Shown: piece after piece, positions 7,684-9,829 of the stretch | How the letters are laid out: the number at the start of each line of letters is the position of its first letter | Numbering within the stretch: the first letter of the stretch is position 1 | Assembly: GCA_018830205.1 (NCBI GenBank) | Contig: JAHJSX010000120.1 | Location: 1 to 24,191, forward strand | Direction: 5' to 3' | Source of the DNA: an archaeon | Lineage (GTDB): Archaea; Hydrothermarchaeota; Hydrothermarchaeia; Hydrothermarchaeales; Hydrothermarchaeaceae | DNA: 24,191 nt | Made by a program: the position numbers and the translations under genes | The notes under the pieces: generated by a model | Database searches by the model: none | What the model was told of the DNA's origin: nothing | What the model saw: only the letters and a program-made list of their open reading frames with translations

Positions 7684-8568
7684 GTGAGGATAAACTTGGA
7701 CCCGAAAAAGAAGGCTGAACTTTCTTTCATATCCCATGCCCATTCTGACCATGTTCCGTCTTCTATTGAAGGGAAAGTCCTGCTTTCAGGGCACACGCAA
7801 ACATTGATTTCAAAGCCAGGGACGCAGGCGCATGAATTCGGGGAGAGTATCCACGTTGGGCCGCTTGAACTCAGCATCCTTGAGTCGGGCCATATACTCG
7901 GGTCCGGGCAGCTTCTGGTCGAAAACGGCATGCGTGTCGTTTATACCGGTGATTTAAACCTGAAGGGCGGCGCCACTTCACCCAAAGCGGCCGTGCCGAA
8001 GTGCGACGTCCTGATAATCGAGACGACCTACGGGCACCCTCGTTATAATTTTCCAAAAAGAGAGGAAGTTGTGGGAGCGATAAAAGATTGGGTTGACGAC
8101 TGCCACGCCAAAGACCAGACGCCGGTGATGCTTGGATATTCGCTTGGCAAGGCCCAGGAGCTTACAAAATACCTGAGCTGCGATTTTGAAGTTGGCGTGC
8201 ATGAATCAATCTATCATTATAATCAAAAATACAAAGAGTTGGGCGTGGATTTGGGGGAGTACTCGCTTCTTGACGGGAAGCGCCCGGAAGTTGCAATAAT
8301 CCCGCCCAGCGCAAGGAAATCCTTCAACAATGAGGACTATCGATTTGCATTTACAAGCGGGTGGGCCCTGACTAGCGGAGGGGCGCGTAGATACAGCGCA
8401 AACACAGGCTTCCCTCTGACAGACCACTGTGGATTTGACGAACTAATCGAGTACGTGGAGCGCGCAGACCCCCAGATGGTTTACACAACGCATGGTTTCG
8501 CAGAGGATTTCTCAGAAGAGCTCCACGAGAGGGGATTTTATTCGGAACCTATAAGTTCGATGAAATAA
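7684..8568 (+). CDS. Metallo-beta-lactamase beta-CASP family nuclease (COG1236-like)
   Basis: SHAHSDH, GHILGS, YTGDL, ETTYG, YSLGKAQE, TDHCGFDEL, THGF. The true start is probably upstream, near 7628-7645 (see findings). Confidence 0.85.
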   Translation: MRINLDPKKKAELSFISHAHSDHVPSSIEGKVLLSGHTQTLISKPGTQAHEFGESIHVGPLELSILESGHILGSGQLLVENGMRVVYTGDLNLKGGATSPKAAVPKCDVLIIETTYGHPRYNFPKREEVVGAIKDWVDDCHAKDQTPVMLGYSLGKAQELTKYLSCDFEVGVHESIYHYNQKYKELGVDLGEYSLLDGKRPEVAIIPPSARKSFNNEDYRFAFTSGWALTSGGARRYSANTGFPLTDHCGFDELIEYVERADPQMVYTTHGFAEDFSEELHERGFYSEPISSMK

Positions 8569-8578
8569 TTCTTTTTGT

Positions 8579-9829
8579 ATGCGCCTGATTGTAACCTCCC
8601 AAAAAGACATCGCCGGCTCAAACATCTACGAGATGCTGGCCTGCGATTTCGGCTTTAAAGAAGACGGGGATTTTGAGGGGAAGCCTGTTTACAAAAAAGG
8701 TGACATCTGGCTCATCGCAACAGGGCGCGGGCAGGTGGAGGCAGAGCATCTCGATGAGTTTTTTAATCCTGATTATTACGTGTTTGCATCGCGCCACCGC
8801 AGCGAGTCAGGGGAGCGGACGCTTACCGTGCATGTAACTGGCAATCTTACTGAAAAAGCAGAGGTTGGTGGTAAGCCAAAGGAGCTCGCATACGCGAACC
8901 CGGATGCCATGAAAGTTGCGCTCTTGGAGCTTGAAAAGGGAAGAGAGGAAAAAAATCTCGACTACAAGGTCTCGATGGAGGCAACACACCACGGGCCGAC
9001 AGGCCTTAAAAAGCCAGTGCTTTTCGTTGAGGTCGGTAGTACAGAGGATGAGTGGCGGGATGAAAATGCGGTTGAGGTGGTTGCAAGAGCTGCACTTGCG
9101 GCTGCCGAGAACAAAGAAGAATTCACGCGTGCTATCGGCATCGGGGGGAATCACTATGCGCCCGTGCACACAAAGGCGGTGCTTGGCACTGATATCTCCA
9201 TCGGCCATATAATTCCGATATATGCAGTAAGCGAAATAGGGTTAAAAGAATTTAAAAAGGCATCTGAAAAGACCGGGGCCGAGTTCGGGTTCCTCGACTG
9301 GAAGGGTATGCGAAAGGAGCACAAGGACAGAGTGAGGGGGTTTGCAGAGGAGCTTGGCCTTCCGCTAAAGCGCGGGAAGGATATAATGGGGGCCTCAAAG
9401 CTGCCTGAATTTGAAATCGAAGAGGAGTTCTTCAATGAGGCCGTTAAAGCGAACAGAAAAATCATTTCTGATGCCATAGAAAAACACGGGGGCGTCCCAA
9501 AGTCCAATAAAGATGGAAGCATGTCTAATAAAATTTCATCAAAAATGGACATTCGAAAGGCTGTAATTTCGGCCTGCATCAAGGCGCTTTTACAAAAATA
9601 TGATTTGAAATTTGATGGAAATCTGGTCCTAAAAGAAGAAAAGATTGACATGAAAAAGATAGAATTACTCGGCATAAAACCTGGGCCGATTCTTGGAAAA
9701 ATCGCGCATGGTCAAAGTGTAGAAGTAAACGGTGTTGCCATTACCAAGGACATGATTGCATCTGAAGAAACAAGAGTCATAGAAATAAAAGAAAACCTCA
9801 CAAAAGACATTTTAGAGACCATGTTGTAA
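8579..9829 (+). CDS. dtdA: Archaeal D-aminoacyl-tRNA deacylase (DTD2/GEK1) with a C-terminal extension of about 145 aa
   Basis: FASRHRS, LTVHVTGN, EATHHGP, FVEVGS, IGGNHYAP, GHIIP, DWKG. Confidence 0.92.
   Translation: MRLIVTSQKDIAGSNIYEMLACDFGFKEDGDFEGKPVYKKGDIWLIATGRGQVEAEHLDEFFNPDYYVFASRHRSESGERTLTVHVTGNLTEKAEVGGKPKELAYANPDAMKVALLELEKGREEKNLDYKVSMEATHHGPTGLKKPVLFVEVGSTEDEWRDENAVEVVARAALAAAENKEEFTRAIGIGGNHYAPVHTKAVLGTDISIGHIIPIYAVSEIGLKEFKKASEKTGAEFGFLDWKGMRKEHKDRVRGFAEELGLPLKRGKDIMGASKLPEFEIEEEFFNEAVKANRKIISDAIEKHGGVPKSNKDGSMSNKISSKMDIRKAVISACIKALLQKYDLKFDGNLVLKEEKIDMKKIELLGIKPGPILGKIAHGQSVEVNGVAITKDMIASEETRVIEIKENLTKDILETML

Follow-up and report, generated by a model that had tools for sequence, protein, structure and literature searches.

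The DNA analysed here (the window) is a stretch of 24,191 nucleotides, positions 1 to 24,191 of contig JAHJSX010000120.1 from an archaeon of the Hydrothermarchaeota (assembly GCA_018830205.1). It carries a long-form dtdA gene (Table 1), in which the catalytic core of a D-aminoacyl-tRNA deacylase (DtdA or DTD2) is followed, in the same reading frame, by a conserved C-terminal domain of ~147–148 residues. Part of this extension is homologous to the flexible arm (exosite) of the tRNA-processing nuclease RNase Z.

The catalytic core and the C-terminal extension

The core was delimited with family models and with proteins of known structure. Pfam PF04414 covers residues 63–262 (E 9e-69; 231.5 bits against a cut-off of 33.6), which places the protein in the family, and the NCBIfam DtdA model NF003072 covers residues 1–264 with 266.6 bits, slightly below its equivalog cut-off of 272. 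The short DtdA proteins from Pyrococcus (PH0006, PDB 2gfq) and Archaeoglobus (AF0625, PDB 1yqe) align with residues 1–263 (E 6e-54) and 1–269 (E 4e-46), respectively. The core motifs S-x-E-x-T-H-H-G-P, G-G-x-H-Y, G-H and D-x-K are all present and are invariant in a full-length DtdA alignment of 17 sequences (alignment A1); the invariant residues S132, E134, T136-H137-H138-G139-P140, G187, G189-G190, H192-Y193, G209-H210 and D240 are intact, and the N-terminus MRLIVTSQ is common to all aligned homologues. Judged by its sequence, the N-terminal part of 268 residues is an intact archaeal DTD2/DtdA-type D-aminoacyl-tRNA deacylase with predicted activity. Short DtdA/DTD2 proteins (2gfq, 1yqe, P. 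abyssi DTD2 and Arabidopsis GEK1) have a homologous core with the invariant motifs intact, but they stop 0–14 residues beyond it, whereas the window protein goes on for 148. A preliminary description, made by a model from the letters of the DNA, had already put the end of the core near residue 268 of a frame of 416 residues, on which the two family models and the two structures agree. The residues it quoted (357–393, nucleotides 9647–9757) are read exactly so in the translation; the start of the extension, given there as 9385, needs a small correction, as the codon of residue 270 begins at 9386.

Homology of the extension with the RNase Z arm

In RNase Z/ElaC proteins the arm is a two-stranded stalk with a small globular head and carries a GP motif of the form LG-x-x-x-GP-x-[FY]-x-x-L-x-x-G ... 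I-x-P-E-x-V. The arms used for comparison were those of B. subtilis RNase Z (1y44, 2fk6, 4gcw), E. coli RNase Z (2cbn), human ELAC1 (3zwf), ELAC2 (8z1f, 9ey0, 8rr3) and yeast Trz1 (5mtz). The part of the window protein beyond the core (the tail) was searched as a single sequence and as a profile built from a tail-only alignment (A3) of 21 sequences, comprising the window protein, seven relatives from related genomes and distant phmmer matches. As a single sequence, residues 352–402 match positions 152–203 of the curated RNase Z model TIGR02651 (E 2.5e-4), that is, the arm alone, and the arm of human ELAC1 is the top PDB match of the tail (E 0.065). With the A3 profile, the top of the PDB list was formed by five RNase Z sequences (six entries), each matched at its arm: yeast Trz1 (5mtz, residues 241–286, E 7.7e-9), ELAC1 (3zwf, 197–240, E 8.4e-8), E. 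coli RNase Z (2cbn, 166–193, E 1.5e-3) and B. subtilis RNase Z (1y44/4gcw and 2fk6, 164–192, E 0.018). Direct comparison of A3 with an alignment of six canonical RNase Z proteins from related genomes (A2) by hhalign paired DtdA residues 349–403 with RNase Z 144–201 at a probability of 98.1% (E 8.4e-14); the full-length DtdA alignment gave 97.3% with the RNase Z of the relatives.

The relationship was also recovered in the reciprocal direction. The tail profile retrieved canonical RNase Z proteins (~300–320 residues) in 33 of the 38 genomes of the phylum (E 1e-10 to 1e-15), the matches spanning profile positions 85–137 (65–136 in the two f12 genomes); its other matches in these 38 genomes were long DtdA proteins and a single frame of 51 residues. 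The canonical RNase Z of one relative has the HLHGDH motif and an arm that reads KKFDIEKAAALGLKPGPWF...GKLITPEMV. A Pfam WIYLD match obtained with the tail alone (E 0.037) stayed under the cut-off and was set aside as spurious.

The structure of the tail was predicted with AlphaFold2 from the A3 alignment (predicted local distance difference test score, pLDDT, 94.8; predicted template modelling score, pTM, 0.83). When the model was compared with 48,161 representative chains by VIA-align, the best match was the arm of E. coli RNase Z (2cbn_A; Z 7.0, 1.7 Å over 50 residues), with residues 350–399 (81–130 of the tail model) superimposed on residues 153–203 of the chain; the structural likeness that the preliminary description had anticipated is thus found. 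A Foldseek search of the PDB with the tail gave a mixed result: 1y44_B had a probability of 0.97, but its E-value was 0.04, nothing appeared at E ≤ 0.001, and RNase Z stood in the list among weak KH-like and ferredoxin-like matches. The six best Foldseek candidates after realignment were all RNase Z/ELAC2 arms (1y44_B, 2fk6, 4gcw, 8z1f, 9ey0 and 8z1g), four of them in tRNA complexes; 1y44_B superimposed with Z 6.3 and 2.2 Å over 47 residues (21% identity). The fit was 1.7–2.6 Å over 47–50 residues for the bacterial arms and 2.0–3.7 Å over 43–52 residues for ELAC2. Structural neighbours of the tail in the ESM Atlas were long DtdA proteins, followed by RNase Z-family clusters; a feature search of the same resource with the tail gave nothing usable.

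In principle, the resemblance could be convergent or fortuitous, or the tail could be a functionless, decaying remnant of a fused RNase Z fragment: only about 50–55 residues align, the Foldseek E-values exceed 0.01, and the tail is dispensable, as the short forms show. Such an origin is very improbable, however, in view of profile E-values of 1e-8 to 1e-14 with reciprocal matches, the 1.7 Å fit across the whole arm, the very confident fold prediction and the conservation of the tail, the arm most of all, across Hydrothermarchaeota and Halobacteriota. The DtdA arm is a true homologue of the RNase Z arm in sequence and predicted fold. Profile search, hhalign, reciprocal search and predicted structure concur on the RNase Z-type flexible arm that the preliminary description had recognized in the extension.

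The homology does not make the protein an RNase Z. Its TIGR02651 match amounts to 18–20 bits against a cut-off of 293 and covers 152–203 of the 302 model positions, so that membership of the RNase Z family is not indicated; the HxHxDH motif is absent from the whole window protein, and no structural match to the metallo-beta-lactamase core of RNase Z chains was seen beyond the arm. Since both the core and the motif are lacking, only the arm was transferred: the window protein shares the arm module with RNase Z, yet it is a DtdA. The arm of RNase Z is inserted into the metallo-beta-lactamase core that cuts the 3' trailer, with the compact head held out by the stalk, whereas the arm of DtdA rises from a ferredoxin-like platform and is tethered to a differently folded hydrolase that removes an amino acid from the CCA end. 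A 192-residue fragment at the end of a JGI contig (P0017), which corresponds to a DtdA tail, carries in its source the annotation 'ribonuclease BN (tRNA processing enzyme)'; it was evidently misnamed by an automatic pipeline that saw the similarity to RNase Z.

Within the extension, conservation is highest in the arm (38 non-redundant sequences with <90% identity, from several orders), the consensus of which in these sequences is kFdP.kA..LGi..GPlfG.La.G..v.v.g.tI.PemV. In the AlphaFold model two stalk strands (348–356 and 394–402) bear a small globular head (357–393), in which short helices (358–363 and 370–376) surround the GP motif and are accompanied by a beta-hairpin (381–383 and 386–388) and a helical turn. 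G369, P370 and G378 are invariant and G365 is conserved in at least 90% of the A3 sequences; G365 and G369 are invariant in A1 as well. The helix 370–376 carries conserved hydrophobic residues.

Table 1. Position of the long-form dtdA gene and of the parts of its product in the window.
Feature	Residues	Nucleotides	Strand	Basis and remarks
Long-form dtdA open reading frame	416 residues	8579..9829	+	TAA stop; open reading frame list and translation
DTD2 catalytic core	1–268	8579..9382	+	PF04414, NF003072, 2gfq/1yqe alignments
Interdomain linker (IMGASKL)	269–275	9383..9403	+	Flexible; AlphaFold pLDDT <50 at 271–273; length varies among homologues
Platform subdomain	276–345	9404..9613	+	Ferredoxin-like beta-alpha-beta-beta-alpha-beta; AlphaFold
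RNase Z-type flexible arm (exosite)	348–402	9620..9784	+	hhalign, profile search, VIA-align
GP motif and next helix, LGIKPGPILGKIAHG	364–378	9668..9712	+	Tail alignment A3, full-length alignment A1
C-terminal helix	406–415	9794..9823	+	AlphaFold; variable or missing in many homologues

The arm accounts for only ~55 of the 147 extra residues; the remainder forms a ferredoxin-like platform specific to DtdA and the helix at the C-terminus. The platform consists of strands 277–279, 305–309, 315–321 and 342–345 and helices 282–302 and 326–340, all predicted with pLDDT >95, and is poorly conserved except for G313 (invariant) and C333. Its structural neighbours are generic: the GlyRS beta subunit (7yse_C, Z 5.3), designed ferredoxin folds and KH domains. 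The likeness to the GlyRS beta subunit was left at the level of the fold, with no tie to a specific tRNA-contacting domain. Descent of the platform from the metallo-beta-lactamase core was likewise considered, as an ESM Atlas overlay placed up to 108 residues on RNase Z-family models (template modelling score 0.46); it is not claimed, because in VIA-align and hhalign the similarity does not go beyond the arm. No sequence match of the platform outside long DtdA was found by phmmer with the tail as query against 1.84 billion representatives. The full-length AlphaFold model has a pLDDT of 90.4 and a pTM of 0.65; the low pTM, together with the poorly predicted linker residues (Table 1), suggests that core and tail are probably joined by a flexible tether.

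Distribution and origin of the long form

The exhaustive phmmer search with the tail yielded 21 proteins, and every full-length one is a DtdA; the short matches, on contigs of 700–2000 bases, are probably fragments. A pattern scan of species-representative genomes, combined with a full-length alignment, provided 80 named loci, 24 of which contain the tail domain in a local hmmsearch with the tail profile. The carriers are Hydrothermarchaeales and allied metagenome-assembled genomes (MAGs), Methanoperedens, the anaerobic methanotrophs (ANME) of group ANME-2, Methanosarcinales, Methanocomedens, Methanohalobium, a Halobacteriota MAG and Methanocella; Methanomicrobium and Methanosalsum occur among the names of long-form protein clusters. 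The occurrence of long DtdA in other euryarchaea, mentioned in the preliminary description, is thereby borne out for Methanosarcinales, ANME-2, Methanoperedens, Methanocella, Methanohalobium and Methanomicrobium. The long-form lineages in the sample are Methanosarcinales, Methanocellales, Methanomicrobium and Hydrothermarchaeota, and short forms predominate elsewhere. The short form is the one present in Thermococci, Bathyarchaeia, Thor-, Hel- and Promethearchaeota, and Nano-, Woese-, Undin-, Iain-, Alti- and Hadarchaeota. Overall, 23 of the 79 archaeal DtdA genes sampled are long (~29%) and 56 are short, and the number of residues after the core is bimodal, with 0–14 in the 56 short genes and 139–194 in the long forms. 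The phylum of the window holds both, with open frames of 415–489 and of 273–294 residues; the presence of short forms within the same phylum implies that the domain is dispensable in evolution.

In a tree of the core (quick maximum likelihood, midpoint root) the long forms fall into two well-supported clades. The Halobacteriota clade is long throughout (16 rows), and the Hydrothermarchaeota clade has 8 long and 3 short rows, with two short rows nested among long ones; the long/short label requires at least 2–3 changes on this tree. The whole domain of 135 residues, the platform included, can be aligned between the two clades (E 1e-27 to 1e-40), and on this ground the domain appears to have arisen once, to have been inherited or transferred afterwards and to have been lost at least once.

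Three NCBIfam models belonging to PRK14866 (NF011436, NF011435 and NF011437), built for 'hypothetical protein' members of 435–524 residues, describe the same two-part architecture. The tail of the window protein aligns to them with E-values of 1e-12, 2e-8 and 7e-4, respectively, and NF011436 aligns with the core (residues 4–276) as well as with the tail (positions 298–430). The scores of 221.9, 168.6 and 107.9 bits are far below the equivalog cut-offs of 612, 622 and 1107, so the window protein represents a separate Hydrothermarchaeota subfamily. Longer PRK14866 members differ from it by an additional, often Cys-rich insert between core and platform. This insert is seen in the DtdA proteins of 455–507 residues from Methanosarcinales, Methanocella and Methanomicrobium (columns 320–395 of A1) and is Cys-rich in Methanocella (CGPHKCASCPFG; residues about 340–375 of the frame at locus L060); the window protein is without it. 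In Methanocella the long DtdA, with its arm, continues without a stop into a complete FtsZ (Tubulin and FtsZ_C domains), giving frames of 860–880 residues (L060:2351-5068 (+) and L105:1006-3777 (+)). The same fusion is found in 26 protein clusters, including those of M. paludicola SANAE (annotated as deacylase/FtsZ homolog) and M. conradii.

A canonical RNase Z was not found in the assembly from which the window derives (62.6% complete), where the RNase Z model matches nothing but the DtdA arm. Given this completeness, and since 16 of the 21 genomes searched have an RNase Z match above the family cut-off, the missing gene carries no weight and most likely reflects a gap in the assembly. Most relatives also encode RNase Z-like metallo-beta-lactamase paralogues of ~240–290 residues without an arm (e.g. 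G007:C39:5642-6412 and G003:C9:1002076-1002807), which match the RNase Z model on both flanks (positions about 2–150 and 200–302) and lack the arm segment. DtdA and RNase Z of these genomes thus both have an arm, and a close paralogue of RNase Z has none; within the phylum the arm is confined to DtdA and RNase Z, besides the matched frame of 51 residues.

Upstream of dtdA in the window lies a metallo-beta-lactamase/beta-CASP gene of 294 residues (7684–8568, +), the stop of which is 11 nucleotides before the dtdA start. Its product resembles the ligase-associated DNA-damage-response exonuclease model TIGR04122 (182 bits, below the cut-off of 325). The gene is also found upstream of dtdA in five relatives from three families (G002, G003, G010, G012 and G020), and not in G019. 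Genes for subunits F and A of a V-type ATPase follow downstream of dtdA, and no functional link was seen between the arm and these neighbours.

Proposed role of the arm in tRNA recognition

The RNase Z arm clamps the T-arm and elbow of tRNA (PMC5449637; PMC11996679). The helix that follows the GP motif in ELAC2 has a hydrophobic patch that stacks on the G19–C56 elbow pair, and deletion of the arm abolishes processing (PMC11996679). As the DtdA arm keeps the GP motif and the hydrophobic helix used by the RNase Z arm, we infer that the tail serves as a handle for the T-arm and elbow; by its place in the structural alignment, helix 370–376 would be the approximate counterpart of the ELAC2 helix that stacks on G19–C56. 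The long DtdA would then be a trans-editing enzyme of two modules, in which the DTD2 deacylase is connected by a short flexible linker to an accessory domain of 147 residues, whose ferredoxin-like platform carries the stalk and head homologous to the RNase Z arm. The head is envisaged to dock on the T-arm and elbow as in RNase Z, with the GP-motif helix facing the G19–C56 corner. The catalytic core, at a distance of about one acceptor/T-arm minihelix, would receive the aminoacylated CCA end. Such a grip, based on shape and independent of sequence, would suit a deacylase that acts on many tRNA species; it would be expected to lower the Michaelis constant and to help to tell L-shaped tRNA apart from other acyl esters. 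Because short DtdA works without the module, the module is an optional add-on. Both the contact with tRNA and the kinetic consequence are suggested by analogy with RNase Z, and we put the probability that the tail acts as a shape-reading clamp for the T-arm and elbow, helping a two-module enzyme to capture any D-aminoacyl-tRNA, at roughly 65%.

The proposed arrangement has parallels in the Ins3 insertion of human GlyRS and the C-Ala domain of AlaRS, for which a role at the elbow has been described (PMC9908026). In each case a small accessory domain would sit on the elbow while the catalytic domain works at the acceptor end. Ins3 and C-Ala have folds unrelated to that of the DtdA module, however, with no detected homology to it; a tRNA-processing nuclease is the source of the DtdA module.

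Several observations weigh against the arm being a tRNA clamp. The structural Z-scores of 5–7 are modest in absolute terms, because only ~50 residues can be aligned, and the weight of the structural matches lies in their rank, their completeness over the arm and their accord with the sequence statistics. The orientation of the arm and its reach relative to the active site lack a confident prediction (pTM 0.65). The arm is only mildly basic, with a median net charge of +2 (range −7 to +11; 38 sequences), and the platform slightly acidic; in long forms the core has lost no charge for which an arm might compensate (median net charge −5 for long and −6 for short forms). Short DtdA proteins, some of them nested among the long forms of the phylum, manage without an arm. 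Finally, the ELAC2 arm also binds a protein partner, the N-terminal domain of TRMT10C, so that protein docking is conceivable (PMC11996679).

This last point leads to the possibility that the arm was retained for docking to proteins or for oligomerization, for instance to tether DtdA to a translation or tRNA-processing factor, with no contact to tRNA. The contact of the ELAC2 arm with TRMT10C is made through a hydrophobic surface, the weak basicity of the DtdA arm would be in keeping with such a role, and the in-frame fusion to FtsZ in Methanocella implies that the tail tolerates protein neighbours. The residues that the arms of DtdA and RNase Z have in common are, however, those of the GP motif and the next helix, which face the tRNA elbow in ELAC2, and no conserved partner gene is evident, the upstream exonuclease-like gene being syntenic in some relatives only. 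We therefore regard docking as unlikely. Slightly less likely still is that the tail redirects the enzyme to another or narrower substrate (pre-tRNA with a 3' trailer, a subset of tRNAs or aldehyde-modified D-aminoacyl-tRNAs) or acts as an autoinhibitory or regulatory lid. The linker would permit large domain movements, the long form is restricted to particular lineages, and DTD2 is reported to be active on aldehyde-modified D-aminoacyl-tRNAs too (PMC7857688, PMC10942605). On the other hand, the RNase Z arm reads the generic shape of tRNA and no sequence, and the tail resembles no anticodon-binding or other specificity domain.

A further proposition, to which we give an even chance, goes beyond the clamp itself: the RNase Z exosite would be an autonomous elbow-binding cassette that was lifted once, put on a new platform and fused to DTD2, which would make a proofreading enzyme measure the acceptor/T-arm minihelix in the way RNase Z does.

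A search for literature that pairs DTD2, DtdA or deacylase with RNase Z or a flexible arm returned no relevant paper, most subscription journals being outside its reach, and the C-terminal extension is unmentioned in the main DTD2 papers that were searched by text. No functional study of a long DtdA came up either, in line with the preliminary description, which knew of none. A known enzyme and a known module thus occur in a combination for which no description was found; this falls short of proof of novelty.

All the DTD2 biochemistry that was found deals with the short enzyme, the work on chiral proofreading and on aldehyde detoxification in archaea and plants included, and the recognition of the tRNA body by DTD2 is unaddressed in that literature. 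The carriers of long DtdA include methanogens, ANME archaea and Methanoperedens, and the key element of their extension is now recognizable as the RNase Z tRNA clamp. Database labels can be corrected accordingly, as the tails have no annotation or are called "hypothetical", and fragments bear the wrong name "ribonuclease BN". The RNase Z arm emerges as a portable module beyond an idiosyncratic insertion, and its ~55 residues, a predicted natural binder of tRNA shape, might be reused in protein engineering. If the exosite is indeed a transferable cassette, the long DtdA would be the first instance of the module outside RNase Z, with a tRNA handle swapped between processing and quality-control enzymes, and its presence may alter the set of aminoacyl-tRNAs that undergo proofreading in methanogen and ANME lineages.

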